Assembly: GCA_963674825.1 (NCBI GenBank)
Contig: OY771587.1
Span: forward strand, 160,001-224,000
Reading direction: 5' to 3'
Origin: Candidatus Cloacimonadales bacterium
Lineage (GTDB): Bacteria > Cloacimonadota > Cloacimonadia > Cloacimonadales > JAIOQZ01
Length of the DNA stretch: 64,000 nucleotides
Under the pieces are notes generated by a model. The model had not been told where the DNA came from, ran no database searches, and worked only from the letters and a program-made list of their open reading frames with translations. Every line of letters begins with the position of its first letter. Position 1 is the first letter of the stretch. Below are positions 2,282-37,011 of this stretch, one piece after another. The position numbers were made by a program, and so were the translations under genes.

Positions 2282-3064
2282 ATGGATCCTATCCGCGAAA
2301 ACGACTTCCTGAAGTATGCAAGATTTAATACAAACACATTGCATTTACTAATCTCAAATGTACTATTCTTTAACCATATATCGAACTATAACGACCCTGC
2401 CGAAGTTTTATTGGACTTCGATTTCTCAGAAAATCACAATGCATACAAAAAACTCCGCAATAGCACTAAATACCTAACATATCATTTATGCTTGGATAAA
2501 ATAATGCGCAGCAAAGAGACCAAGGAAGAATTTAAAAAATCAAGCCCAACAGCGGTTGATCAACAATCAGCTCAAGAGGTCATCACAGATATCCAATCTA
2601 AGTATCGTTGCTGTAGTATGACAAAAGCATTTAGCAGCTTGATGTTCGCTCATTACGCTGACTCACATAAAGGCATCTGCATCGTTCTGGATGGAGACCT
2701 GCAGTATTTTCGAAATGCCAAGCAAGTGAAATACGACTATTACTTCCAAAAAAGTTTTACTGGCTTTGTAAGAAAAACCGAGAGTATTGAGGGAGCATTT
2801 CTTAGGAAGAGCAAAGAATGGAAATACGAAAATGAGTATCGAATACTTAAACTTCCAAGTGAGTTTACTTCAGGTTCTCAATTTGGAAATGGCTATTATG
2901 ATTCAATCCCAAAGAATTCGATCCGAGCTATAATCCTGGGATGTCGCATGAGAGAAAATGATCTAACCATCATACAACAATTAAAGAAGAAAAAATTAAT
3001 TAATTGCAAACTATTTATCTCTGAATTACAGCAATCAAAAATCAAATTAAAGCCATGGCCATAG
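2282..3064 (+). CDS. DUF2971 domain protein (AT-rich, likely acquired)
   Basis: YNDPAE, LMFAHYADSHKGICI, KSKEWKYENEYR and IILG motifs; RBS GGAGG; clearly lower GC than flanks. Confidence 0.8.
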   Translation: MDPIRENDFLKYARFNTNTLHLLISNVLFFNHISNYNDPAEVLLDFDFSENHNAYKKLRNSTKYLTYHLCLDKIMRSKETKEEFKKSSPTAVDQQSAQEVITDIQSKYRCCSMTKAFSSLMFAHYADSHKGICIVLDGDLQYFRNAKQVKYDYYFQKSFTGFVRKTESIEGAFLRKSKEWKYENEYRILKLPSEFTSGSQFGNGYYDSIPKNSIRAIILGCRMRENDLTIIQQLKKKKLINCKLFISELQQSKIKLKPWP

Positions 3065-17941: not shown

Positions 17942-18296
<355 letters not shown>

Positions 18297-20658: not shown

Positions 20659-22621
20659 ATGGAAAAAGTTACGTTTCTTCCAACCAATGATTTAGCAAGA
20701 GGATACTACCTTGAGATTTTATATAAAGTAGTCACAGAATTCGACAAGAAGAAGTCTCGACGTACTATAAATGATTTTATTGAGATGCATCATATTGTTC
20801 AATACATGAATGAAAATGTTTTTCTCCTCAAATGGACCGATAGTGAGAAAGATATCATTCGAAGAAAAGCAAAAATTTTCCCAGCGATGATCTGTAAATA
20901 CTTCAAGAGTATTAGGTTTCGACAAATAGGAAGACTCTACAAAAAGACGTTGAACGAATATCGGTATGATTTTTGGTTCTTAATGGATAAATATGAGTGT
21001 TTTAATAACATTCCAGAGAAATACTTCCTACGCTATTTGCTTAGATACCAACCAAGATTACTCGACATATTATCACATAAGAAGCTTGTTAGACACTTCG
21101 ATCATGCCTTAAGGAGTTACTTAATTGTTTCAATGGAGACTGCAGAAAAGCTAATTGAGCGGTTTGCATTTGTTAATCATGGCAATCTCTATTTCCCTGC
21201 CTGTCTCACAATTCAAGACAAAGAAAATATTATCCAGAAATACATTATATCAAAGAAAGCAAGCTCAAACTATACTAGTGCAATTGAAAGCATCAGGAAT
21301 TGTTCTAAAGAACTTGAGATATCAGATAAAACACGCCTTGCTGCCAAAAAACGATCTATCCAATTGAATAATGACCTTTTCTCCAAGTCGCAGGTGATAT
21401 CTAATAAAATACGAGTATTGTTTCAAGAACAAGAGATAGAAGTCCATACAAGAAATGAAGGACTGAACCACACCTATTCTTACAGTACGAGCTGGATAGT
21501 TAATCATCTAGACTTCGAAACCCTTTTTAAATAATTTCATCCATTTATTCAACTTCGCTGACTTACAGATGAGGATATCACTTGTGAATAACCCGATTGA
21601 ACCTGGATTATTCCGATACTTACTTCCTCAAGGTAGTACAACGTATAATACAGGATTATCATATCAATACGTAGACCGACTTTCATCCCATCAATTCTAT
21701 CTATATTATAACATCCTTAGAGATTGCAACATTGCTACCGAAGATATGATCGAATGGTTTTTTACTCAATATCTCCCACGCGAGTTTGGAGCTAACGGAT
21801 TTCGTATTATTATGCCTTCATCAAATTCTCGATATTTTGAAAAATGCAGAACCGTTTTACCTGAAATTGAAAGTATATTGAAGCAATTTAATCTATATAT
21901 TAATGATGGCAAGATCGACCATGAATTAATGCAAATAGCATCAAATCCACTTCCTCTGAGCCACTGCTCAAGTTTCCTGCAAAATAAATACATATATCCC
22001 AATACTGATGAAAGCCAAGAATACCGAAATGTAGTCCATCTTCTTTTCTCAGACCAATGCATGCTCAAATACCTAAAACGCGCGAAAAGGAATTATAGAC
22101 ATTTTACAGAATTAATACTGTCTGAGACTGTCAGATACAACGACTACTCCGACTATCTACATAGTAGCTTGGACTGGTTGCAAAGGCATGGCTACATTGC
22201 ACTCCGTAACGATTCGCTATGCTTTTCCAACATAAATCAAGTACAAGTATTGTTTGATCTACACAAGAATCAGACAATAAATTACTGGCGATGCTCTCCT
22301 CAACTTCGCACAGAAATTGACAAACTCATCCAGAAAAGATTGCTGAAAGCTGGAAATAGTCTATTCTCAGCACCAGAACAAGATTACTTTGACTATCACT
22401 TAAATAGAAGAACTTTTAGCAATTCCTTGGACTTGAGAAACAAGTACTTGCACGGCACACAGCCTGATCCCGAAGACGACAAACAACATGAAGCCAACTA
22501 TATGATCATCTTGAAGCTATTGATTCTTATCATTATCAAAATTAACGATGAATTTTGCTTACATGATGATAAAAAAAAAGGAAATCCTTCTCACCCATAT
22601 ATGACATTACCATATGAATAG
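20659..22621 (+). pseudogene. AT-rich gene of about 650 aa with C-terminal HEPN-like RxxxxH motif, split by +1 frameshift near 21524-21534
   Basis: ORFs 20659-21534 and 21569-22621 join into ...ETLLNNFIHLFNFADLQMRISL if one T is removed from CCCTTTTTAAATAA; FSNSLDLRNKYLHG near the C-terminus. Confidence 0.7.
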
Positions 22622-24843: not shown

Positions 24844-25096
24844 CATGGAACGCGGACGTCCCCGTCCGCCTCCACATCTCCATCAACCTTCCACGATCCA
24901 TGAAATCAACATTCGGAAGATGATTTCTTGAAGAAAAGGGCAGGCACAGGGACCTGCCCCTACAGCGCACCCGGTACTCCGGGTCTTCTTTCCCCTTGGA
25001 TCGCCAAGCCCCAGCTTGGCAATTCTCCATGAAATCAACATTCGGAAGATGATTTCTTGAAGAAAAGGGCAGACACAGTGGTCTGCCCCCTACAGC
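24844..25096. repeat. Composite REP-like cluster 1
   Basis: GGAACGCGGACGTCCCCGTCCGC; two ~70-bp copies (24897-24966, 25026-25096) of TCCATGAAATCAACATTCGGAAGATGATTTC + GGGCAG...CTGCCCCTAC; GCCAAGCCCCAGCTTGGC. Confidence 0.85.
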
Positions 25097-25220
25097 TAGG
25101 TAGGCGACAAGTATTCTTTCGCGCAGGAATTGGGGATAAATCATTTTCATTGACAAAATACAAGTTTGGAACAATAAGTATAATCTCTGACCCAGTGGAT
25201 TTGATGAAAGGTGTAATGTA

Positions 25221-26849
25221 ATGGCTTACAGAGTTTTAGCAAGAAAGTACAGACCGCAGCGCTTCGAAGATGTCTATGCACAGGAGCATATCACCCGTAC
25301 GCTGTCCAACGCGATCAACCTCAATCGCATCGCGCACGCATACCTGTTTACAGGACCGCGCGGCGTCGGGAAAACCTCCATGGCACGTATCTTCTCAAAA
25401 AGCCTCAACTGCGTGCACGGACCGACTCCCGAGCCCTGCAACGTCTGCGACAACTGCGTCGAGATCACCGCTGGGACATCCTCGGATGTGATCGAGATCG
25501 ACGGCGCTTCCAACACCAGCGTGGAGGATGTCCGCGACTTGCAACGCGAGCTGATGTACGCCACCTCGAAATCAAAGTACAAGATTTATATCATCGACGA
25601 AGTCCACATGCTCTCTAAAAGCGCATTCAACGCGCTGCTCAAGACGCTCGAGGAACCACCCGAGAACGTGATTTTCATCTTCGCGACCACCGAGCCACAC
25701 AAGATTCTGCCTACCATCATCTCGAGATGCCAGCGCTACGATTGCCGCCGTATTCCGGTGGAAGACATCGTCAAGCAGATGCAATCCATCGCCGATTCGG
25801 AGGAAATATCGTTCGACGAGGATGCGCTCTATACCGTTGCACGAAAAGCGGATGGTTCCATGCGTGACGCGCTTTCGCTGATGGACCAGGTCATTTCCTA
25901 CGGCAGCCAGGAAATCACCGGCGAGCTGGTACAATCCATCTTCGGCATTCTTCCCGCAGAAACTTACATCGAGATGCTCGATCACGTTCAGAAGCGTGAC
26001 TCGACCGGCCTGCTGGTCAAGCTTCGCCAGATTCTGGACAGCGGAAACGACCTGCAGGAATTCCTCAACGGCTACCTCGACACCCTGCGCAACCTGCTTC
26101 TGCTCAAGGTCGGTGTCGACCTTCACGAACTCCCCGCAAGTATCATCAATGAGCTCAAGCTCCGTTCGCAGCAGTTCACAGAAAACGACCTGCTCTACAT
26201 GATTTCGCTGCTCATAAAGGCAAAGACCGACGCCCGGTTCGGAAGCGATCCCGTGCTACTCACCGAGATGGTCTTCATCAAGCTGACGCGCATCTCCGAA
26301 ATCCAGTCGCTGGACACGATGATCGAGATGCTGAACAAGCAACCGGTGGAAAGCCGCCAGGAGACCGAGGCATTCTCCGGCATCCAGAAAGAAATCCTGC
26401 ACTACACCCGAGACCGCGAGACCGAAAAGATCGTTCAGGAAGTGAAGAAGCAAAAACCTGAGGTAGAGAACCTCGATCTGGCATACGTTCAGGGCAGATG
26501 GGAAGACTTCATCAAGAAACTGCAACGCGAAAAGTTACAATTATCCGCAATCTACCTGCAAGAAGGCAAGATCCTCACCGTTCGCGACAATCTGATTGAA
26601 GTGGAGCTGAAGAGCCCTACCGCGATGTCGTCCATGCAGCGCAACCTGGAAGATATTCAGGCATGCGCGCAGAAGCACTTCGGGATCAAGCCGCGATTCA
26701 AATTCACCGTCTGCGAACCGGAGCAGGAGCAATACATCTTGAACCCAACACTCGAGCAGATTCGTGAAGAGACACCCGAGCTCGCCGAATTCATCGAGAT
26801 GACCAAGTCAAAAGTCGAATCCCGCACGCCAACGAAACTGAACCAATGA
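25221..26849 (+). CDS. dnaX: DNA polymerase III subunit gamma/tau
   Basis: LARKYRPQ, GPRGVGKT, EIDGAS, IDEVHMLS, LKTLEEPP, SRCQ. Confidence 0.97.
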   Translation: MAYRVLARKYRPQRFEDVYAQEHITRTLSNAINLNRIAHAYLFTGPRGVGKTSMARIFSKSLNCVHGPTPEPCNVCDNCVEITAGTSSDVIEIDGASNTSVEDVRDLQRELMYATSKSKYKIYIIDEVHMLSKSAFNALLKTLEEPPENVIFIFATTEPHKILPTIISRCQRYDCRRIPVEDIVKQMQSIADSEEISFDEDALYTVARKADGSMRDALSLMDQVISYGSQEITGELVQSIFGILPAETYIEMLDHVQKRDSTGLLVKLRQILDSGNDLQEFLNGYLDTLRNLLLLKVGVDLHELPASIINELKLRSQQFTENDLLYMISLLIKAKTDARFGSDPVLLTEMVFIKLTRISEIQSLDTMIEMLNKQPVESRQETEAFSGIQKEILHYTRDRETEKIVQEVKKQKPEVENLDLAYVQGRWEDFIKKLQREKLQLSAIYLQEGKILTVRDNLIEVELKSPTAMSSMQRNLEDIQACAQKHFGIKPRFKFTVCEPEQEQYILNPTLEQIREETPELAEFIEMTKSKVESRTPTKLNQ

Positions 26850-27940
26850 TCCTCGCTTATGCTCTGACCGGCTTTTATTGCCTGCTGCTGCTATTCCTGA
26901 CCATCGGTGTGCTGCTCCATCGCAAGCCAAACTGGCATCCACACCGCACCATCAGCGTTATCGTTGCCGCGCGTAACGAAGAGAAAAGCCTGCCACAACT
27001 GCTCGAAGCCCTCGCCAAACAGGATTATCCAGCCGATCACTTCGAGATCGTTCTGGCAGACGACCGCTCCACCGACGGGACATGGCAGATCATGCAGGAT
27101 TTCTGCGAATCTCATCAGCATGTCATTGCCCTACAAGTCCTCGAAACCGACGACGGCCATCCAGGCAAGAAACGAGCCCTCGCCAGAGCCATCGAAGCAT
27201 CTTCCGGTCACATCCTGGCCTTTACCGACGCCGACTGCCGACCCGGGCCCAACTGGCTTACCGAGATCGACCGGCACATCACCGAAAAAATCGACTTCGT
27301 AGCTGGCTACTCCCCGCTGATTACTGCTTCGGGAACTATCATCGATGGACTGAAAAACCTTGAGCGCGCATCCATCTTCGCCGTCACATCCGGCAGTCTC
27401 GGCTGGAACTGGGGCCTGACCTGCACCGCACGCAACATGGCCTATACACGTGAGCTGTACGACAGCGCGGACGGCTTCAGCGGAATCGATCATATCCGTT
27501 CCGGCGACGACGACCTCATGCTGCAAAAGCTTCATCACTTCTCGAAAGGCATGCGCTTTATCTTCTCACAGGATTCCATTGTGCCCTCTTACGAAAACGA
27601 CGATGTTGCCACGCAGATCAACCGCGAAACACGACGAGCCTCGAAATGGCGTTACTACCCGGCGTCCCTGAAGATCATCACCCTGCTGGTCATGCTCTTC
27701 TATCTCTGCCTGGCGTGCTGCCTCACTGGCGCGATCATCCATCTCGTCAGTTGGCCCGTCTTCCTGAGCATACTGGCCGCGAAGATATGCAGCGAATTCC
27801 TGATCCTCCTGACCTTCCTGATCCGCATGAAGCGGACACCCCTACTCCTGTGGTTCCCGCTCGCGGAAACCCTCTACGTACCCTACTTCATTTACTTCGG
27901 AATACGCGGCACCTTCGGCGCGTATCGCTGGAAGAGCTAA
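26846..27940 (+). CDS. Membrane glycosyltransferase family 2
   Basis: VAARNEE, DDRSTD, FTDADC, SGDDD; TM helices at both ends. Confidence 0.9.
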   Translation: MILAYALTGFYCLLLLFLTIGVLLHRKPNWHPHRTISVIVAARNEEKSLPQLLEALAKQDYPADHFEIVLADDRSTDGTWQIMQDFCESHQHVIALQVLETDDGHPGKKRALARAIEASSGHILAFTDADCRPGPNWLTEIDRHITEKIDFVAGYSPLITASGTIIDGLKNLERASIFAVTSGSLGWNWGLTCTARNMAYTRELYDSADGFSGIDHIRSGDDDLMLQKLHHFSKGMRFIFSQDSIVPSYENDDVATQINRETRRASKWRYYPASLKIITLLVMLFYLCLACCLTGAIIHLVSWPVFLSILAAKICSEFLILLTFLIRMKRTPLLLWFPLAETLYVPYFIYFGIRGTFGAYRWKS

Positions 27941-28008
27941 GCCTGCAAGAAGTACTTTAACCACACATAAACTATCCCAACCCCGCTCCTAAATTTTAGT
28001 TAATTATC

Positions 28009-28036
28009 TTGACATCGCTTTCATTTTCCGTACATT
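28009..28036 (+). promoter_or_regulatory. Sigma70-type promoter of the terS-terL-portal unit
   Basis: TTGACA-N16-TACATT with AT-rich upstream tract, then RBS GGAGGG and ATG 28055. Confidence 0.6.
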
Positions 28037-28054
28037 CAGTCGCGGAGGGTGACT

Positions 28055-28480
28055 ATGTCAGAAAAGAAAACCGTACGGTACAATCCAAAGCTCCATCCGC
28101 ACATGATCTATATCTACAGAAAGCAGGGGTGCGATCAGAAGGAACTGGCGGAGATGCTCGGGATTGAGATCAAGCAATTGAACGGGTGGCTCAAGCGTTA
28201 TCCAGAAGCAAAACAGGCATATCGTATCGAACCAGGAGAGATGGATCGGATCATCCAGCAAGCGCTGATGAAGATGGTGGACGGATATGAAAAGAAAGAG
28301 ACCGTCGAGACCTACAAGAAGAACAAAGACGGTGAAGAGGAGCTTGTCGAGCGCAAGGTAACTACGCGGCACGTGGAGGGTAATCCGGCCGCGCTGAAAC
28401 TGTGGCTGGAGAAGTTCTTGAAGAATAATGAAGATGACGACGAAAGCGCCGATTATGAGGACAAGGAGTTTCTGGATTGA
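28055..28480 (+). CDS. Phage terminase small subunit-like HTH protein
   Basis: GCDQKELAEMLGI...LNGWLKRYPE HTH, ALMKMVDGY, NPAALKLWL; stop overlaps terL start. Confidence 0.75.
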   Translation: MSEKKTVRYNPKLHPHMIYIYRKQGCDQKELAEMLGIEIKQLNGWLKRYPEAKQAYRIEPGEMDRIIQQALMKMVDGYEKKETVETYKKNKDGEEELVERKVTTRHVEGNPAALKLWLEKFLKNNEDDDESADYEDKEFLD

Positions 28481-29712
28481 TTCTGAAGCTGCGGCGTAGC
28501 GACTACCTCCCACATCAGTGGGAGTTCCTGACCAGCGAAAATCCATTCAAAGCGCTGGTGAGCGGCTTCGGTGGCGGGAAGACCCATGTCTTCCTGCGTG
28601 AAACGCTCCTGAACCACCTGTTTATGAAAAACAAGCAGGGAAAATCCAACGGCTGGATCGTCTATCCCACCTACGCGCTTGCGGAAGAACTCTTCTGCGA
28701 GCCGTTCAAGGAGCTCCTGGACAAACAGCGGATCAAATACGATTACAAAGCGACCCGCCTGAAGTTCGAGAGCAGATTCGGCACGATCAGGGTTTACCAA
28801 CTGCAAACGCCGCAGCGCATGGTCGGCACAGAGCTGACCTACATCGGCTTCGATGAATTCGACATCGGCAGCTACAAAAACTGCGAGATGGCCTACCGGA
28901 AAGCGATTGGCCGTCTGCGGGGCTGTGAAAACGCCAAACTGTATATTGTAACCACGCCGGAAGGCTTCCACTACACACACAAGCTCTTCGTTGAGGAAGG
29001 GGCCGATAAACATCTGATCAAGGCGAAAACAACTGATAATCCCCACCTTCCGGCGAGTTACATCCACTATCTTAAAAGCCAGTACGACGCCGTCCTGCTC
29101 AGGCGGTATATGGACGGTGAATTCGTGAACTTGAACACAGCGCAGGCGTATTACAGCTTTGATCGTGAGCGCCACACGGGAAATCCCGAGATCACAAGCG
29201 CGCAGGAGTACTACGTCGGCATGGACTTCAATATCGATCCCATGACAGCCATCATCGGCGTCATGCAGGGGGAAAAATTCGTCATCCTGGACGAGTTCTG
29301 GCTCAAGAACAGCAACACCGAGCGAATGTGCCAGGTGATAGCGCAGAAGTACGCCCCCCGCAAGGTGGTCGTATATCCAGATATGACCGGCATCAAACGC
29401 TCCACGAGTGCTGCGGTGGGCATCACCGACATCAAGATATTGAAAGCGCAAGGCTTCCAGGTTAAGGCCACGCGCAATCCACTGGTTCGCGACCGCATCA
29501 ACGCAGTCAACAACTCGCTGGCAAAGAATAATCTGCTCATTGCGCAGCATTGCAAGCACCTGATTCGCGATCTCGAGCAGGTCTGCCGCGACAGCCACGG
29601 AGAACTCGACAAATCGAACCCGGATCTCACCCACATCTCCGATGCGATGGGCTACGCGGTGTGGAACCTCTTCCCCATCGTCAGTCAACCGGACTGGAGG
29701 ACCTCAGCATGA
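28477..29712 (+). CDS. Phage terminase large subunit (PBSX/Terminase_6-like)
   Basis: Walker A SGFGGGKT, Walker B YIGFDE, coupling motif VTTP, nuclease VGMDFNIDPM and HISDAMGY; TTG start with RBS AAGGAG. Confidence 0.92.
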   Translation: MILKLRRSDYLPHQWEFLTSENPFKALVSGFGGGKTHVFLRETLLNHLFMKNKQGKSNGWIVYPTYALAEELFCEPFKELLDKQRIKYDYKATRLKFESRFGTIRVYQLQTPQRMVGTELTYIGFDEFDIGSYKNCEMAYRKAIGRLRGCENAKLYIVTTPEGFHYTHKLFVEEGADKHLIKAKTTDNPHLPASYIHYLKSQYDAVLLRRYMDGEFVNLNTAQAYYSFDRERHTGNPEITSAQEYYVGMDFNIDPMTAIIGVMQGEKFVILDEFWLKNSNTERMCQVIAQKYAPRKVVVYPDMTGIKRSTSAAVGITDIKILKAQGFQVKATRNPLVRDRINAVNNSLAKNNLLIAQHCKHLIRDLEQVCRDSHGELDKSNPDLTHISDAMGYAVWNLFPIVSQPDWRTSA

Positions 29713-29716
29713 GAAA

Positions 29717-29829
29717 AAGAAATCATCTTCCGAATGTTGATTTCATGAGGCGGTGTGTCGTCCATCGCTACGTCTCGGCAAGTCGGGCCACACGGCAAGG
29801 AGATGCGGACGTCTCGTCCGCGTTCCATG
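29717..29829. repeat. Composite REP-like cluster 2 (inverted relative to cluster 1)
   Basis: 29717-29747 is the exact reverse complement of CATGAAATCAACATTCGGAAGATGATTTCTT; 29805-29829 GCGGACGTCTCGTCCGCGTTCCATG matches the 24844 element. Confidence 0.8.
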
Positions 29830-29900
29830 AGGGAAGTGCGACCGCCGGAACCTTTCTCAACTCGTAACTCGTAACATATAAGTTATTTAAGGAGGGTAAA

Positions 29901-31274
29901 ATGGAAACCATGATCAGAAACATGCAGGCGGTGGCTCGCTGGAATGAGGATATCCAGCGTCGTCTGCGCATCCAGAAATATCTGGATTATTACCGCAACC
30001 GGTGCGGAAATTACATCGCGGAGCGGATTGACGGGATGGTCGATACCGAGGAGGCCAAAGAGCTCAAGAAGTATATCGAGCACGACAACATCACTGAGCG
30101 TTTCATCGAGGAGATCAGCCTGGTGTTCGCAGAAAAGGTACGAATCACCGCGCGACGTCAGCAATCCGATGGACAGCTCGTTAATGACACCGACGCCCAG
30201 AAGCAGCTCGACCGGCTTTTGCGGCTCTCAAGATTCCAAGTAACCATGAAAGAAGTGGAGCGGCTCAGCAAGCTCATCTTCGATGTGGCGGTGTTACCGC
30301 AGGTTCGCGATGGCAAAATTGAGCTGGATATCATCACCGGCGACAAGGCATTTGTAGTACAGCAGGAGAAGAATCCGCTCATGGCTGAGCAATTCTACTA
30401 TCAGGTGGGAGTCCGGGAAAACACCGCACTTGCGGACCGCGTGGATGTATACCACTACTGGACATCCGAAGGCCGAAAATACCAATGCGAAATCATGCTC
30501 AACGGTCGTCCCGACCCGCAGAGCGTCCAGCACCTGAATCACATTCCTTACGATCACATGCCGGTCATCATGTTCCGCAGCTATCTGCCCATCGACGCAT
30601 TCTGGTACGACGGCGAGAACGCGATCGTAGAAAAGAATATCGCCATCGATCTCAAACGCACCGACCTCGCCATGGCGGAGGCATACAACATCCCACAGCT
30701 CCTAACCACAGGCACACGCGAGAATCAGGACCTCAAAAAAGGCCGCACCTTCAAGATCGATATCCCGCGCAACGACATGGGAGAGGCTGTCGGCGACGCT
30801 AAGTACCTTGCTCCAAAGGAGCCGCTCGAGGAGCTTAACGAGATGATCCTGAGCCGCATCGAGCAACTTGGATTGTCGAAGGGGCTCTCACGCTCGATGA
30901 TTACCGGAGCAAACGCATCTTCGGGGTACGAACTTGCGCTTTCGAAGTATGAGATTGTGGAGCGTAACCGCAGGCAGCGCGATTACTATTATGATTCGGT
31001 GGTGGAGCTGGTGCAGACGATGATCGTTACCGCCAACCGAGGACTTGGTTGGGAAATCCCGGAAGACCTGGTTCTGGGTGTCGATTTCGGCGAGATTCGC
31101 TTTGCAGTCTCTGACGAAGAGCGCGAAAAGACACGCCAGATGAAACTGGAAAATGGAACGGTATCGCGCATTGACCTGATGATGGAAGATAATCCGGAGC
31201 TTGATCGCCAAACGGCAATCGAAGAAGCGAAACGGATCGACGGAGAGAATTGGAAGTTCAGCGCGGTAAGTTGA
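29901..31274 (+). CDS. Phage portal protein (SPP1 gp6-like)
   Basis: 457 aa after terL; LDYYR, NITERFIEE, PVIMF, DAKYL, SSGYELAL, VDFGE, NPELD...EAKRI; RBS AAGGAGG. Confidence 0.8.
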   Translation: METMIRNMQAVARWNEDIQRRLRIQKYLDYYRNRCGNYIAERIDGMVDTEEAKELKKYIEHDNITERFIEEISLVFAEKVRITARRQQSDGQLVNDTDAQKQLDRLLRLSRFQVTMKEVERLSKLIFDVAVLPQVRDGKIELDIITGDKAFVVQQEKNPLMAEQFYYQVGVRENTALADRVDVYHYWTSEGRKYQCEIMLNGRPDPQSVQHLNHIPYDHMPVIMFRSYLPIDAFWYDGENAIVEKNIAIDLKRTDLAMAEAYNIPQLLTTGTRENQDLKKGRTFKIDIPRNDMGEAVGDAKYLAPKEPLEELNEMILSRIEQLGLSKGLSRSMITGANASSGYELALSKYEIVERNRRQRDYYYDSVVELVQTMIVTANRGLGWEIPEDLVLGVDFGEIRFAVSDEEREKTRQMKLENGTVSRIDLMMEDNPELDRQTAIEEAKRIDGENWKFSAVS

Positions 31275-32115
31275 CCATTACATCACCATATCCGTAATAT
31301 TGCTCGGACTCTTCCACTATGTAATAAATGACGCGCAGCAATTCGCCTGCTTCGGCATCGACGCCGGTCACAGAAACATTGTGGAAACCGGTAACAAGTT
31401 GGCTGTTCATGATCTCATGGACAACCTCGCCGTCTTGATCGACCAGAATCATGATGACACGTGCCGGAGCATTAATCGAAAAGCTGATGGTGAAGGAATC
31501 CTGGAAGCTATTCGGATAGGCTGGATAAACCCTTGGATACCCGGACGGATTCTGGTCCGTGCCGACTTCAATCGACGCGGGACCTGTTCTCTCCGGGTTT
31601 TCTTCATCCACTGAATAAGCGAGTAACCAGTAGTAATAGGTGAAGCCTTCCATCAAGTTTTCGTCGATATAGCGATAGGGACATGGCGTTGCCTGGTTTT
31701 CGGAAGCGATTATTTCTGATGTTATCCGATGGGATGATTCGAACTCCGGTTTTATGCTGCGATTCAAATGGTAACCGAGCATATCAACTTCATAGGTTGT
31801 CGTCCATTCCACAGCGAAATAGTCTTCGGATAGCGCCGTGACGCTGAAAGTATCGATATATGCATAACGATCGGGGCTAACAGGTACCACGCCTGACATG
31901 GTAGTCATGCGCCAGTCGAGGGTATCGACAGGAGTCTGGGGATCGCCGAAATCGTCGGTCTTGGTGTAGTAATAAAAATCACCAATATAAGCCTGGAAGT
32001 CATAGCCGTCGATATCCACCCAGTCCGATTGGGTGGTTGGGTTGGTCGAGTCGTCCTCACAGCCTGCCATCATTGCAAGCAGTACAACTATCACAAATAA
32101 GCCGATATACTTCAT
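31258..32115 (-). CDS. Lipoprotein with FN3-like and degenerate FlgD-Ig-like domains
   Basis: Lipobox MAGC; WTTTYE..GYHL..YYYWL; YPAYPNSF. Confidence 0.7.
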   Translation of the reverse strand: MKYIGLFVIVVLLAMMAGCEDDSTNPTTQSDWVDIDGYDFQAYIGDFYYYTKTDDFGDPQTPVDTLDWRMTTMSGVVPVSPDRYAYIDTFSVTALSEDYFAVEWTTTYEVDMLGYHLNRSIKPEFESSHRITSEIIASENQATPCPYRYIDENLMEGFTYYYWLLAYSVDEENPERTGPASIEVGTDQNPSGYPRVYPAYPNSFQDSFTISFSINAPARVIMILVDQDGEVVHEIMNSQLVTGFHNVSVTGVDAEAGELLRVIYYIVEESEQYYGYGDVMVNLPR

Positions 32116-32167
32116 GTCGTCCCCTCTATATTCGTGTGCTCAATAGATATCAGGAAAATATATGTAC

Positions 32168-34183
32168 TTAATACGCTATACGTTTCATTACCGCGCCGGA
32201 TTTGTCAAATAAAACCCATTCGCCGGTTTTTTTGCCATCAACATAAACGCCTTTCGCGTATAATCTACCCATCGAATCGATCAGCGACCACTCACCTTCG
32301 CGTTCACCATTGATGTATATTCCCTGCAGAACATTCCCATCCGGTGTACGCTCAATCCAGAAACCTTGCCGAAGCCCGTGCTCGAGATTTCCTTCCGCGA
32401 CAGGCTTGTTTGCACTACTGTAGTAGCTCCACTTGCCGTGCTTCTTGCCTGCGACATACATGCCAACCGCATAGTTATTATCCACGTAGGTTTCCAGCCA
32501 AATGCCATCTTTCTTGCCTGCCTTGTAGTCACCCTCGGCAACCACCGCTCCCGTTTCATCTAATAACTGCCAATGTCCCACCCGCAGACCGTGAATGATC
32601 GAACCTTTTTCCCATAGGTTTCGAGTCTTATCGAATCGCAGAAATTCACCGTCCGGCTTACCAGTATCGTACTTCTGCATGATCATCTGCGGTTCGAATG
32701 CCCACCAACCGATGCGGAGGCTATCATAAACCACACCTGTCTCGACTGAGCCATCAGCGTTTTCATAACAAGAAAGCCCCATTTGCTTATCATCCAGCCA
32801 TAACGCTGTCAGCATTGAATCGGCAATCGCGTCGTATTCTTTCCATACACCATTGCGCTTGCTATTATAGATCTTTCCCTCGCACCATGAGCTGTCGTCA
32901 TCCAAGCGATAGTAATAGCCGTAAACCGAACCGAGATCGTATTCAACTTCTGTCCGAACGGTACCATCCTGTAAGTAATAACTTGAAACACCCTGCTTCA
33001 ATCCGTTGCGATATGGGATCTTGCATAGCAATGTACTGTCGGGATAATATATGCTGGATTCACCTTCCAGAATGGAAGCATCATCTTGCAGCGCGATGTC
33101 ATCGAATGGCGTCCACATGCGATAATGATGCACTTCGCGAAGTGAACCTGATTCGTCGTAGATCAGGCTTTCGCCCACTTGCTGACCTTCTTCGAACTCG
33201 CATTGCTTCAGCAAGATTCCGTTTCGATTATACCAACGCCAGATACCCTGCCGGAGTCCTCCCCAGATGATACCTTCGCAATAGGAGCCATCAGACTGGT
33301 AATCGACCCACTGTCCACGCGGAACGCCTCGCTTGTACTCATGGAGCCAGATCAGTTTCCCGTTAGCATCACGAGCCATCCAGTTACCTTCACGGACGTC
33401 GTTGATATATTTTCCTCTAATGGTCGTATCATCATGCTGATATAAACGCCACACACCGTCTCGCCGGCCATGAAGATAGTCTCCCTCAGCGACCATGAAA
33501 TCGGTAGAATCCCATTCAGTCCAATAGCCCGTGCGAAGATCATTGTCGTACTCGCCCTCATCGCGGTTGCCCAGTTCGTCCCATTCCTTCCAGATGCCTT
33601 GCTTTCGCTCAAGACGGATCACACCTTCAGAGCGTTTCTTGCCGTCTGGATACCACATGATCCACTTTCCGTCGGCGAAGTTGTTTTTATATGCGCCCTT
33701 ACCTTCTGGTGTCCCGTCCGGGTACCACTTCTGCCAATCGCCGTTGAGTTTGCCATCGATATAAAAGCCCTCGCTGCTCTTGTTGCCATTATCGTGCCAG
33801 GTGATCCATACGCCATTCTGTTTGCCACCACGGAAAGCTCCCTGAGCTTGCTTCATCCCATTTTCATGGAAGAGTGTGACGGTCGTATCGGCAAAGGCAT
33901 CAGGGTCGATCGATTCAAGGCGGGTTTTCATGCGGAGGGTACCGTTGCGATAATAGTCGCTGACCAAGCCCTTCGGCTTGCCGTTCTCGTAATCCAGTAC
34001 GCGGTAGAAAACGCAATCTTCTTCGTGGCGTACTGGCTTCCAGTAGCGATCGAACATCTGCACCCAGCGACCAGTGCGTTTTCCACTGTCGTCCAATTTA
34101 TTGGGTGCGTCGGGGATCTCGGCAAATAGCTGGAAAACGGTGCAAAGCAGCAGAGCTGCGAGAAGAGGCACGCTATATCTCAT
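32168..34183 (-). CDS. Exported MORN-variant (YwqK-like) repeat protein
   Basis: Signal peptide and many G.W..W..NG....EG.Y repeats. Confidence 0.82.
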   Translation of the reverse strand: MRYSVPLLAALLLCTVFQLFAEIPDAPNKLDDSGKRTGRWVQMFDRYWKPVRHEEDCVFYRVLDYENGKPKGLVSDYYRNGTLRMKTRLESIDPDAFADTTVTLFHENGMKQAQGAFRGGKQNGVWITWHDNGNKSSEGFYIDGKLNGDWQKWYPDGTPEGKGAYKNNFADGKWIMWYPDGKKRSEGVIRLERKQGIWKEWDELGNRDEGEYDNDLRTGYWTEWDSTDFMVAEGDYLHGRRDGVWRLYQHDDTTIRGKYINDVREGNWMARDANGKLIWLHEYKRGVPRGQWVDYQSDGSYCEGIIWGGLRQGIWRWYNRNGILLKQCEFEEGQQVGESLIYDESGSLREVHHYRMWTPFDDIALQDDASILEGESSIYYPDSTLLCKIPYRNGLKQGVSSYYLQDGTVRTEVEYDLGSVYGYYYRLDDDSSWCEGKIYNSKRNGVWKEYDAIADSMLTALWLDDKQMGLSCYENADGSVETGVVYDSLRIGWWAFEPQMIMQKYDTGKPDGEFLRFDKTRNLWEKGSIIHGLRVGHWQLLDETGAVVAEGDYKAGKKDGIWLETYVDNNYAVGMYVAGKKHGKWSYYSSANKPVAEGNLEHGLRQGFWIERTPDGNVLQGIYINGEREGEWSLIDSMGRLYAKGVYVDGKKTGEWVLFDKSGAVMKRIAY

Positions 34184-34190
34184 GAGTGGT

Positions 34191-34763
34191 TCAGAAGGCC
34201 AGTCCAGCGGTTATCTGCAGACCTGCGATATCAATGTTCTCTGCATCATTCCAATAGTGGACGTTTTCGTTGTAATAGAAACGGGTGAACATGTATTTGG
34301 CCTGCACACGTAAAATGGATGTCTGGAATCCTAACACGAAATGGAAGCCGATCGTGTTGCTGGTGGCAGTGCTGCTACCTTCAGAGTTACCGCCCTTCCA
34401 GACGGCATGCTCTCGCTGGAAATAATAACCCGAGCCCATACCGGAATACACGAAAGAACCACCGAGATACGAACGCACAAGGATGGTTGTGGTCAGTGGA
34501 ATCAATCTGTACTCGTAGTCGATTACACCGAAATTTTCGTCGCGATACTTCGAATTCTCCGCGAAAATATAATCAATGCATATTTCAGTTCCATACCCGT
34601 TTTCGCCCCAGTTGCGTACTTCCATTCCTGCCGAAAAGACGTCGTCGTATGCATTGTCGAAATGGTGCTGCGGGAGCATATAGCCCACGTGGAAGCCGAC
34701 CAGGCCATGCAGCGCGGTAAGAAATCCGAGAGTGAACACAAGGAAAACAATCCGCATCTTCAT
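34191..34763 (-). CDS. Small outer-membrane beta-barrel protein
   Basis: Signal peptide, amphipathic strands, terminal Phe (AGLAF). Confidence 0.7.
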   Translation of the reverse strand: MKMRIVFLVFTLGFLTALHGLVGFHVGYMLPQHHFDNAYDDVFSAGMEVRNWGENGYGTEICIDYIFAENSKYRDENFGVIDYEYRLIPLTTTILVRSYLGGSFVYSGMGSGYYFQREHAVWKGGNSEGSSTATSNTIGFHFVLGFQTSILRVQAKYMFTRFYYNENVHYWNDAENIDIAGLQITAGLAF

Positions 34764-35371
34764 ATCATATCCTCAAGCGATTTCGGTTCTTCGGACTTAT
34801 CAACTGGAACATCCGTTACGGGGTGAATCATTATCGATTCCGAGAGGATGCGCCATCCGTAAGGTGTTTGGATAACCTTATCTATGGAGAGCAGGTATTT
34901 TTTGCTCTCACAGGCTAGACGGATATTCAGCTTATAGATGGGCTGATGATCAAAATCCTCTTCTGTAAATAGCGACTCGACTTTTAATACTGTGGCGGCA
35001 TGCCAGTCGATCCCAAGCTTGTTCTGCCCCAAATTGAGAAGCGTCCAGAACTCTGTCTCAAAAGTTTCGTCTAGGTGTTTTACGTACTGCTGAAGTACTA
35101 CAACCTGCTCATCGTACTCTCTCTTCTCGCTGCGGTTGAGATTGCGATAGTGCTCATCAAGCTTACGCTGCATTATGATGCGATGCAACTCGATATCGGA
35201 GAGCAGATTGCCTTTCATCGCGGTGTAGTCACTCGTAGCCAGCGCACTCAAGATCGATTCTGCTAGCTCATCGGCCGTGATATTACGCGGCTCCAGGTTT
35301 GCATCCCGTTGCACGCAACCAGCTATAAGAAGGACTAATAAAAGTATGTTCAGATAGATTGTTTTTTGCAT
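34760..35371 (-). CDS. Hypothetical lipoprotein
   Basis: Lipobox IAGC; coupled to neighbours. Start 35371 or 35377. Confidence 0.65.
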   Translation of the reverse strand: MQKTIYLNILLLVLLIAGCVQRDANLEPRNITADELAESILSALATSDYTAMKGNLLSDIELHRIIMQRKLDEHYRNLNRSEKREYDEQVVVLQQYVKHLDETFETEFWTLLNLGQNKLGIDWHAATVLKVESLFTEEDFDHQPIYKLNIRLACESKKYLLSIDKVIQTPYGWRILSESIMIHPVTDVPVDKSEEPKSLEDMI

Positions 35372-35373
35372 AG

Positions 35374-35748
35374 TCACTCTTTCATTTGCCTTTGAAAATA
35401 GTATTTCTCACCCATCGAATTGGTGATTTCCATCTCGTCGCGACGCAAGAAAAGATAGTCCATCTGCTCCGTTGGTTTTTCCTTGGGATTGAAAATGATC
35501 GATTTGTGGTCGAATCGATAGATTCCGGTATTCTCTTCTCGCATGATCGTACCTTCCGCTTCCGACTGCACCAGCATGGTGTAAGTACCGTCTTCGCGGA
35601 GATCAAACCGGATCAGGTCGCCGTTCTGGCGTGGGCTCTCCCATACCCAGACACCGTAGATAGGGCGTTCCGATATTGCGGGAGGTTCCTTCGCACATGC
35701 GGCAAAAAGAATCAGTGTAAGTAACATCAGAGAAATGTGAAGCTTCAT
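35374..35748 (-). CDS. Lipoprotein, lipocalin-like
   Basis: Lipobox FAAC, IYGVW, DGTY. Confidence 0.65.
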   Translation of the reverse strand: MKLHISLMLLTLILFAACAKEPPAISERPIYGVWVWESPRQNGDLIRFDLREDGTYTMLVQSEAEGTIMREENTGIYRFDHKSIIFNPKEKPTEQMDYLFLRRDEMEITNSMGEKYYFQRQMKE

Positions 35749-36206
35749 CGTGCCTTTCCAACCACTCCTTTTGCCCAGTCGATCACCTCCGAGGGATCTT
35801 TCATCGGAGTCTTGACGCTGATTGTGTCCAGAATACGGGCATTGGGGAAATTTCGCTGCATCTGCTCAAGCGATTTACCGGGATCGTTGCCACAAGTACA
35901 GAACAGTGCTACATTTCTACCAGCCAGAGGAAACGAATTCGCCAGAGAATTCATCCACGGCGCTGCATGACCGACCCAAACCGGACAGCCAACAAAGATC
36001 AGGTCATATTCAGCCGGTTCCACATTGAGCGGATCAATCTTTGGACTTGCTTTAAATACAGCCTGGAAAGCTCCGATAGGCAGGATGACTTTCTTATTGC
36101 CTATGGGCTGAATCCTTACGATATCAGCATTTACAGTAGAACCAATTGTATTGGCAACCGCTTCCGTGTTGCCGCCAACCGAGAAGTATAGAACAAGTGA
36201 TTTCAT
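35745..36206 (-). CDS. Flavodoxin family protein
   Basis: YFSVGGNTEAVA, YDLIFVGCPVW, FCTCG; RBS GGAGG. Confidence 0.88.
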   Translation of the reverse strand: MKSLVLYFSVGGNTEAVANTIGSTVNADIVRIQPIGNKKVILPIGAFQAVFKASPKIDPLNVEPAEYDLIFVGCPVWVGHAAPWMNSLANSFPLAGRNVALFCTCGNDPGKSLEQMQRNFPNARILDTISVKTPMKDPSEVIDWAKGVVGKAR

Positions 36207-36469
36207 GCTCAACCTCCTTGATAGCCGCAATTTATGAGCTATACAAATGTTGTCAATCAAAGAGTAGTACGAATGCGCTCGAAATCAGCGGTCCCCGTCG
36301 AACCTCGCTTTGTAACGGAATTTGCTTTGGCGCTGAAACCAGAACGCATCTTGCATCGAATCAGATTTTCTCCGCATGAGGATATCGAGCCATGGATGAG
36401 GCAAATTCCTTTCCAAAGCGGTTTCTCCGATCCCACCCACCCGCTGTACGAGCGCATCCTCCCGGGTGA

Positions 36470-36496
36470 TTAGCAGTCTTTGCGCATGAGTGCTAA
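36470..36496 (+). promoter_or_regulatory. CIRCE element (HrcA operator)
   Basis: TTAGCAGTC-N9-GAGTGCTAA, one mismatch to consensus, 8 bp upstream of TTGACA (36505) in front of two Hsp20 genes. Confidence 0.85.
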
Positions 36497-36579
36497 AAAA
36501 ATATTTGACATCCATAGCGCCTTCGAATAATTTATCCATAAACGATCAACATCCGGTTCGCCGGATAAGGAGGAAAACG

Positions 36580-37011
36580 ATGATACTCATACCGAAAAAG
36601 GTTATGACAGAACGAGATCCGATTTCGATGCTGCCCTTGTACGACCGGTATGCCAGAGGGTTTTTCAACGAACTGAATCCAGAAAAGAATTCCCGCACGC
36701 TGCCCATGGACATCATCGAACGTGACGACAGCTATGTGATCATGGCAAACCTGCCTGGGTTCGACAAGCAGGAGGTCAAACTGACCACCCGTAAAGACCA
36801 CCTCATCATCGAGGCGAAGATAGCTGAGCAGGAAAAAGCCGACGACATGAAAGTGCGCTATTCGGAGCGCTTCAACGGAAGCTATTCCCGCGCCGTGCAC
36901 CTGCCCGAAACCATTGATCGCGAGAATATCAAGGCATCCATGGAAGACGGCGTTTTGATGATCAACATACCCAAGAACAGCAATAACAAGAAAGAAATCG
37001 TGGTGGAATAA
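36580..37011 (+). CDS. Small heat-shock protein, Hsp20 family
   Basis: MDIIE, ANLPG, ERFNGSYSR, LPE, DGVLMINIPK. Confidence 0.92.
   Translation: MILIPKKVMTERDPISMLPLYDRYARGFFNELNPEKNSRTLPMDIIERDDSYVIMANLPGFDKQEVKLTTRKDHLIIEAKIAEQEKADDMKVRYSERFNGSYSRAVHLPETIDRENIKASMEDGVLMINIPKNSNNKKEIVVE

Follow-up and report, generated by a model that had tools for sequence, protein, structure and literature searches.

Gene transfer agents (GTAs) with known genes are few and mostly alphaproteobacterial. In the passages cited, RcGTA and the alphaproteobacterial type I GTAs are described as phage head and tail genes placed at several loci and inherited vertically, with a short tape measure, a siphovirus-like short tail and no replication module (PMC9662315, PMC7296036). 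FpGTA of Faecalibacterium prausnitzii, in the part of the account used here, comprises two distant operons, is near-universal in its taxon and has no replication genes; its particles have been shown and carry ~9-kb DNA (PMC12946183). A gene kit resembling both was recognized in a Candidatus Cloacimonadales bacterium (genome G000; one contig, C1, of 3.89 Mb, 99.6% complete). Part of it, the genes of the terminase small subunit (TerS), the terminase large subunit (TerL) and the portal, together called the triad, lies in the 64,000-nucleotide stretch analysed (the window; C1:160,001-224,000). The kit also recalls PBSX of Bacillus subtilis, in which a domesticated phage packages host DNA into particles that do not propagate themselves, as the kit probably does. 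PBSX forms one contractile-tailed prophage, inducible by damage and equipped with a repressor of its own, whereas the kit is split and has no recognised sheath or regulator; TerL matched the PBSX-family model weakly (34.9 bits against a cut-off of 105).

Judged by gene content, distribution and substitution patterns, the kit, of about 17 genes, is real, family-wide, selected, phage-derived and of independent origin. We consider it, with a probability of roughly 0.6, to be a domesticated, split, GTA-like particle system of which the triad is the DNA-packaging half. It was likely tamed once by the ancestor of a Cloacimonadota family, and it likely builds short-tailed particles with host DNA inside. 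The first-pass annotation of the window had named one locus of a split, domesticated particle system among several possibilities, and this was supported, since a second operon was found that is conserved and evolves under purifying selection, and two relatives (G004 and G007) have it joined to the triad. The same annotation regarded the triad as an orphan. That description fits the 64-kb window and fails for the genome, because a head-tail-lysis operon sits on the same chromosome, 2.3 Mb away, at C1:2,506,185-2,516,619.

On available evidence the kit is GTA-like but not a member of the RcGTA family (Rhodogtaviriformidae), which was rejected on a capsid of another subfamily and on the presence of a helix-turn-helix (HTH) in TerS. 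The kit capsid is of the BPP-1/epsilon15 GP7 type, and the GTA capsid 6tb9 ranked 20th with 8% identity, which argues against common GTA ancestry. The kit portal is SPP1-like, the separate locus holds terminase and portal rather than accessory genes, and no stopper gene was recognised. TerS keeps its HTH, whereas the TerS proteins of RcGTA and FpGTA are described as being without one in the texts cited (PMC6854486, PMC12946183). FpGTA differs further in being podovirus-like, with terminase, portal and capsid in one operon, as far as the source describes it (PMC12946183). Two of the six points of the viriform GTA definition, as worded in the cited text (PMC9662315), were found in the kit: particle proteins of tailed-phage origin, judged by PHROG and Pfam matches, an HK97-like fold and phage homologues, and full endogenization over two loci, whose flanks showed neither an integrase nor an att-like repeat.

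Packaging triad in the window

The elements of the packaging half are as follows (window coordinates):

28009..28036, + strand, sigma-70-type promoter TTGACA-N16-TACATT, recognized in the sequence; 47 nt from promoter start to the terS ATG
28055..28480, + strand, terS, terminase small subunit, 141 amino acids (aa) from ATG; PHROG 309 (phrog_309), E 9e-15
28477..29712, + strand, terL, terminase large subunit, 411 aa, TTG start; Terminase_6N E 2e-12, Terminase_6C E 2e-8, phrog_2 E 1e-39
29713..29900, no strand, terL-portal spacer of 188 nt, one short dispersed host repeat outside the phage kit; 20 other blastn matches in the genome
29901..31274, + strand, portal, SPP1 gp6-like, 457 aa, last gene of the packaging half; phrog_533 E 7e-7

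All three frames are open on the + strand, and together with the phrog and Pfam matches this confirmed three intact packaging genes, as described earlier. The coupling of terS and terL (the TTG start of terL overlaps the terS stop), the 17-nt overlap of a convergent lipoprotein gene with the portal stop and the host-like GC content (0.51-0.54 against 0.50 for the genome) could likewise be confirmed. TerL, the sole PF03237 match of the genome, showed 35% identity to Salmonella/Escherichia siphophage terminases. The reported ATPase and nuclease motifs, which we take to be the P-loop, Walker B, the coupling motif and the nuclease aspartates D250 and D389, align with those of phage relatives, and TerL is likely of the headful type. 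The N-terminal HTH of TerS is kept in G000, G001, G003 and G006; HTH_23 scored above cut-off in the G001 ortholog and weaker in G003, and the Atlas neighbours of TerS are viral HTH/terminase proteins. The portal itself had no portal Pfam match, but its 53%-identical relative P0010 passed the SPP1_portal cut-off; this model matched 5 of 12 scanned portal relatives, four above cut-off. Neither the portal profile nor TerL matched any PDB sequence.

The promoter core and its distance to terS are identical in G001 and G003, and a similar box is present in G006 and G005. It had been likened to the promoters of host genes. The TTGACA-N16-TACATT element is indeed present; its type is common, however, and the nearest phage has a similar -35 box ahead of its scaffold gene, so that the promoter need not be a host acquisition.

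When 1,956 open reading frames (ORFs) of related phage-like loci were compared by BLAST, terL and portal were the only matches in the window. Logan contigs from one study cover 25043-29746 and 29718-37000 with no differences and flat depth, breaking only at the short repeat in the terL-portal spacer; the runs may be the source sample. Since these contigs bridge both triad edges at flat depth, neither edge is an assembly join, a concern raised in the first-pass annotation. Among the runs listed as carrying the triad, three from one study, none was RNA, which is uninformative either way.

The terL-portal spacer measures only ~20 nt in G001 and G006. The short palindromic intergenic repeat at window 29713-29900 also occurs at 24,899-25,058, with ~20 similar copies genome-wide, and the G003 terL-portal spacer holds a copy as well.

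Head, tail and lysis genes at a second locus

The second half was reached through G004 and G007, in which genes just upstream of the portal match it in G000. It lies 2.3 Mb from the triad at C1:2,506,185-2,516,619 including its promoter, with one co-oriented operon at C1:2,506,262-2,516,619. The gene order is as follows:

First part: promoter, scaffold, GP7-family major capsid, decoration, adaptor, terminator (by position), tail tube
Middle part: two chaperones, 361-aa tape measure, LamG-containing hub, Dit-like
End part: 95-aa, 299-aa fibre-like, 98-aa, 58-aa holin-like and M15 endolysin genes

Family matches were obtained for the scaffold (weak), the GP7-family capsid (Pfam, E 1e-23), the tape measure (phrog, E 2e-17), the tail tube and the M15 endolysin, while labels of kit genes without a family match were assigned by position. 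The capsid was predicted to adopt an HK97-like fold, with the BPP-1, Carin1 and epsilon15 capsids as best structural matches; the model, predicted from an alignment, had a mean confidence score (pLDDT) of 79, against 34 for a single-sequence fold. No sheath or toxin gene was recognised in the second half, and BLAST of the 1,956 related ORFs found no third structural locus in G000.

Whether the two loci are controlled together was addressed from their promoters. A pattern written post hoc from the terS and head promoters matched just those two sites. In cross-training, the head promoter came 2nd, 3rd or 65th under the terS promoter model, and the terS promoter came 14th, 419th or 4928th under the head promoter model, depending on flank length; with such variation co-regulation of the two loci is not shown. 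A palindrome lying ahead of the head -35 box has no second copy in G000, so no regulon emerged.

Two short inverted repeats in the head-operon leader (L063:6186-6360), between the promoter and the scaffold start, are conserved in six genomes of three genera and absent from the nearest phage. Rfam gave two sub-threshold hits only on the leader, and the repeats could be operators or translational hairpins. In G000, G002 and G003 the head operon is directly preceded by two tandem genes for pilin-like proteins of 133 aa (L063:4786-5807), and in G001 a YifB/ComM-like ATPase gene is its divergent neighbour. Homologues of the 95-aa, fibre-like, 58-aa and M15 genes occur elsewhere in G001, G004 and G006 (L206, L208, L212, L214), at least some of them in Mu-like prophages, which suggests that tail-tip and lysis modules have been exchanged.

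Distribution and gene order across the family

The family set consisted of eight genomes (G000-G007), of which G005 is 81% and G002 90% complete, and the phylum set of 232 (these eight and 224 others). The capsid was present in 8/8 family genomes against 2/224 others, by protein and by Pfam family alike, and the portal in 6/8 against 3/224. TerL was recovered in 7/8 by an alignment query and in 4/8 by a single-protein query, which, like PF03237, missed a second terminase type (G004, G005, G007). Absence from close relatives, one of the outcomes the first-pass annotation had reckoned with, was thus not what was found. Each family genome has the kit in one copy; an additional, distant capsid copy of G004 lies inside a Mu-like prophage. 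G005 retains terS plus a terL fragment at a contig end. The triad and its downstream neighbours are missing from G002, whose contig C5 ends inside the transfer-messenger RNA (tmRNA) gene. This gene adjoins terS in G003, and the contig end lies ~200 bp from the G003-equivalent terS start; the miss therefore looks like an assembly gap.

In G004 and G007 both halves form one block of ~12.5 kb between the same host genes, in the order scaffold to Dit-like, four small ORFs, terS, terL and portal. The triad lies apart from the head genes in five genomes, the distance in G001 being 0.38 Mb, and insertion sites differ between genera. Conservation of the triad beside dnaX and a family 2 glycosyltransferase (GT2) gene, suggested as a check, was not observed: GT2 is beside terS only in G000 and far from the triad in G001, G003, G004 and G007. 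The conserved neighbours are those downstream (the lipoprotein and a MORN protein), common to G000, G001 and G003 and partly to G006. The protein at the terS position of G004 and G007 has 108 aa (L022:7332-7658, L023:7194-7520) with a fast-changing N-terminus in which no HTH was detectable, and its G005 homologue has 134 aa; one genus has possibly lost the DNA-binding domain of TerS in an RcGTA-like manner.

Selection, composition and residence

Ratios of nonsynonymous to synonymous substitution (dN/dS) were calculated by the Nei-Gojobori method with our own script; many dS values exceed 1, near saturation, so that the following ratios are rough. For terS, terL and portal, dN/dS was 0.089, 0.067 and 0.069 between G000 and G003, and 0.148, 0.101 and 0.093 between G000 and G001. 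Against G003, ten head-tail genes (scaffold to Dit-like) gave 0.04-0.15, the lysin 0.22 and the fibre-like gene 0.34. The fibre-like gene is the fastest-changing part of the kit (44-46% identity, dN/dS 0.27-0.39) and is missing from the G001 kit. Between G004 and G007 the proportions of nonsynonymous and synonymous differences (pN/pS) were 0.088/0.763 for portal and 0.092/0.748 for terL. A cleanly trimmed prophage remnant, allowed for in the first-pass annotation, does not agree with triad dN/dS of 0.07-0.15 at dS about 0.9-1.9, and neutral decay is largely refuted.

The kit is also host-like in dS and GC. Its dS of 0.4-1.7 overlaps the 0.2-2.1 of ten host genes, and its GC content tracks that of host genes across 0.38 to 0.63. 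No integrase or replication gene was seen beside either half, the flanking genes being judged by BLAST against their own genome and the phage loci, rather than by a family scan of each. No att-like repeat was present at the kit flanks, which shared just two single 11-mers. By contrast, G000 also has three Mu-like remnants, all of them interrupted; the third-position GC (GC3), determined for one, was 0.63-0.89 against a genome median of 0.60.

These remnants lie at C1:990,900-1,025,200, 2,869,000-2,902,500 and 3,775,400-3,779,800, with near-identical repressor and transposase genes and low-GC insertions; the first holds a five-gene block of ~12 kb resembling a defence system.

Phylogeny and phage relatives

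Scans of IMG/VR yielded 55 + 15 loci (68 distinct, partly redundant), and a metagenome scan yielded 16 portal loci, which served only as BLAST queries. The uncultured relatives of the kit are IMG/VR siphophages (L110/L111 nearest; L113, L114, L134-L136, L165, L172) and contigs of the Cloacimonadota assembly G119. They share terminase, portal, scaffold, capsid, decoration, adaptor, terminator and tube in the same order as the kit, and L110 additionally shares the hub and Dit-like genes. In contrast to the kit, their portal stands beside the head genes with a minor-head gene between. The longest of their contigs are 36-40 kb, with early genes.

A kit tree was constructed from portal, capsid, decoration and tube (1,228 columns; nine host-genome rows and 11 phage rows from the 68 viral loci). 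The eight family copies formed one clade (100/99), with phages L110/L111 as sister (100/99). G011 grouped with the phages; as it also retains a tail-completion gene and its tape measure is longer, it was left out of the family membership count. A host tree of RpoC, S12 and S7 from 22 genomes, with G119 left out, recovered the family (98/99), genus g1 (100/100), G004+G007 (100/100) and G002+G003 (99/99), and the same groups appeared in the kit tree. A vertical pattern is thus seen at the family, genus and species-pair levels, whereas the branch order of the four genera differs: the host tree joins g1 with G004/G007 (84/90) and the kit tree joins g1 with G006 (96/94). Host data did not reject the kit order (p-AU, approximately unbiased test, 0.14 and 0.16). 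Terminase type 2 is found in L111, G004, G007 and G005 and type 1 in G006 and g1, which fits the kit tree with one swap.

Phage-like contigs that belong to the same family and have the canonical order were observed in two further Cloacimonadota assemblies, G119 (L024, L059, L021) and G011 (L005, L056). A cluster of IMG/VR viruses has nearly the same capsid as G119, and the tail-tube gene of G011 is duplicated.

Proposed origin and function

The kit may have arisen from a siphophage genome by a break in or close to the minor-head (MuF) gene, which separates portal from scaffold. Opening of a circular phage genome there, with loss of the early region, would give the order seen in G004 and G007; the tape measure would have shrunk to about 320-360 aa, and later rearrangements would have separated the halves, with the terminase pair swapped once. 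The proposed break falls at a promoter of the TTGACA type, which the nearest phage likewise has ahead of its scaffold gene, and this could explain how the head half stayed expressible.

The tape measure differs clearly from that of the phages. By automatic pick the phage protein has 582-962 aa in 19/25 loci and 447 in one, while picks of 116-131 aa in five loci, uninspected, were set aside as probable chaperones. The kit protein has 317-361 aa (to 402 from upstream starts), about half of the phage length, and keeps the C-terminal part common to the phage protein; the G006 and G004/G007 proteins, both short, can be aligned over their full length.

In operation, the portal, scaffold and capsid would form a procapsid, and TerS/TerL would cut and pump chromosomal DNA in headfuls, because no replicating phage genome exists. 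For SPP1, the cited text reports that portal, scaffold and capsid are enough for packaging-competent procapsids and that the minor head is dispensable for assembly (PMC6316719). A short non-contractile tail, implied by a tape measure of ~350 aa, would then join the head, and the holin and endolysin would release the particle. RcGTA has a tape measure of ~216 aa, a tail of 49 nm and ejection into the periplasm, with no tail-completion protein listed in the tail tube in the text cited (PMC7296036). Recipients might take up the DNA via ComEC and DprA. Both are present in 8/8 family genomes, a support that is weak because most controls also have them (10 and 11 of 14 genomes, respectively).

In a bolder and rather unlikely reading, the independently tamed particle would package the host chromosome, perhaps from a fixed start, and drop the DNA at the cell surface or periplasm for competence uptake rather than inject it. 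The steps of taming would then have been opening at the minor-head gene, loss of both cytoplasm-routing proteins, halving of the tail ruler and keeping, even replacing, a DNA-binding terminase.

Several observations weigh against the GTA-like interpretation. A minor-head gene is absent after the portal in all six portal-bearing kit genomes, and the minor-head profile found nothing in G000 (best E 0.13). A tail-completion gene is not recognisable at its usual place in 7/8 kit genomes, G006 being the only one with it; five genomes checked have a gap of 4-9 nt there, and G005 one of 126 nt. Among the IMG/VR loci, minor-head matches occurred in 36/36 with both portal and capsid, and tail-completion matches in 29/29 with adaptor and tube, counts that are partly circular as the profiles were built from the same loci. 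One minor-head member passed Phage_Mu_F and two tail-completion members matched phrog_26. In the data cited for SPP1, particles without the minor head are ~25% infectious and those without tail completion ~4%, and without the tail-completion protein DNA is spilled outside the cell (PMC6316719, PMC11099176). These drops argue against phage-style DNA delivery by the kit. The G004/G007 cluster has no recognised endolysin or fibre gene, and no regulator was found for the strong promoter ahead of the lysis genes.

The near-saturation of dS also counts here, as do the trees: a capsid-only quick tree placed phage L110 inside the family clade with inner branches open, and the kit data rejected the order of the host tree (p-AU 0.013, with G004, G006 and G007 flagged for composition). 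TerS keeps an HTH that RcGTA and FpGTA TerS lack, so packaging may not be random. The contiguous ~12.5-kb kit of G004/G007 might fit one head; where the halves are 0.4-2.3 Mb apart, the geometry prevents packaging of the kit as a whole.

PF04233 (MuF) matches occur in 7/8 family genomes. Both in G000 are inside Mu-like remnants, and one match each of G006 and G007 resembles these. A 519-aa gene of a Mu-like remnant that had carried a terL label is such a MuF gene and no terminase.

No paper on a Cloacimonadota or WWE1 gene transfer agent was found in the literature searched, which did not include supplements and subscription papers; survey tables there could list such loci. A family-wide candidate in Cloacimonadota would add an independent origin, and with close canonical phage relatives on hand it is possible to name the changes that accompanied taming. 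The missing MuF and tail-completion genes, the shortened tape measure and a gene order permuted and then split parallel RcGTA and offer a testable signature for tamed particles. 'Orphan terminase-portal' loci can be host genes.

Alternative explanations

DNA-filled particles that do not transfer genes, such as a PBSX-like or F-type-tailocin-like killer, a receptor decoy or a means of extracellular DNA release, are a rather unlikely alternative. The loss of both proteins that route DNA to the cytoplasm in SPP1 would suit them, as would the rapid change of the fibre-like gene, its absence from the G001 kit and its homologues beside other tail genes elsewhere in G001 and G006. A tail-only weapon, however, needs no terminase, portal or capsid, and these are among the most conserved genes. 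The terminase was replaced and not lost, the tape measure has kept the C-terminal part, and neither sheath nor toxin is in evidence. A tailocin consists of tail genes without head or terminase genes; both R- and F-type were rejected, as capsid, portal and terminase are kept under selection.

Initiation of packaging at a site, in which TerS would start through its HTH at a pac-like site in or near terS and fill successive headfuls, giving regional rather than random transfer, is unlikely. The HTH is kept under some purifying selection (uncorrected pN/pS 0.23-0.51), and SPP1 gp1 and gp2 alone cut pac in vivo according to the text cited (PMC6316719). Yet terS has no block of synonymous-site (pac-like) conservation, and the HTH evolves 2-6 times faster than the C-terminus and is undetectable in G004/G007.

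It is quite improbable that the kit serves anti-phage interference, with host-encoded head and tail proteins poisoning the assembly of related phages to give short tails or altered heads. A shortened tape measure could corrupt tails, and as related phages are present in Cloacimonadota assemblies (G119, G011), subunits could mix. One or two genes would suffice for this, whereas all ~17, including lysis, are kept; catalytic motifs are intact, and 0/9 kit proteins match PADLOC.

We regard a still-mobile or decaying prophage, or several independent integrations of related phages, as very improbable. Terminase, endolysin and fibre modules differ between genera along with the insertion sites, and the capsid-only tree and inner branching conflict with a strictly vertical history. 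Against this stand the single copy per genome, the same break point and losses, monophyly on four genes, host-like dS and GC, flanks without att-like repeats and flat depth, and the Mu-like remnants of the same genome are broken and GC-foreign, unlike the kit. A functional temperate prophage was rejected: with the flanking genes judged by BLAST against their own genome and the phage loci, no contiguous genome with integrase, repressor, replication genes and att sites was seen. Phage satellites are mobile islands with an integrase and a primase/replicase; a phage-inducible chromosomal island (PICI) or capsid-forming PICI (cf-PICI) was rejected, as neither gene was seen at either locus.

A capsid-independent DNA translocase or helper-capsid hijacker, both put forward in the first-pass annotation, has a negligible probability: the triad does have a separate promoter, and in five genomes it is remote from the head genes, but the same genomes retain its cognate capsid and tail under joint selection, with linkage to the triad in G004/G007, which makes either function unnecessary, and the resident prophage remnants are unrelated Mu-like elements.

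Defence, CRISPR and RNA gene observations

Two low-GC regions of the window matched PADLOC candidate systems. The match to PDC-S56 (window 20659-22621) is divided over two ORFs, each covering one half of a single model, and belongs to a variable island found 2.4 kb downstream of the tmRNA gene (17942-18294); the other, to PDC-S31, is at window 2282-3064. None of 98 CRISPR spacers (50 from G000 and 48 from a G006 locus) matched the kit or phage loci. G000 has two CRISPR arrays with different repeats (C1:1,823,588-1,824,624 and 2,000,398-2,002,383), and one of its spacers has a 19-nt match elsewhere in the genome. A selenocysteine tRNA gene (tRNA-SeC) is present at C1:1,971,717.

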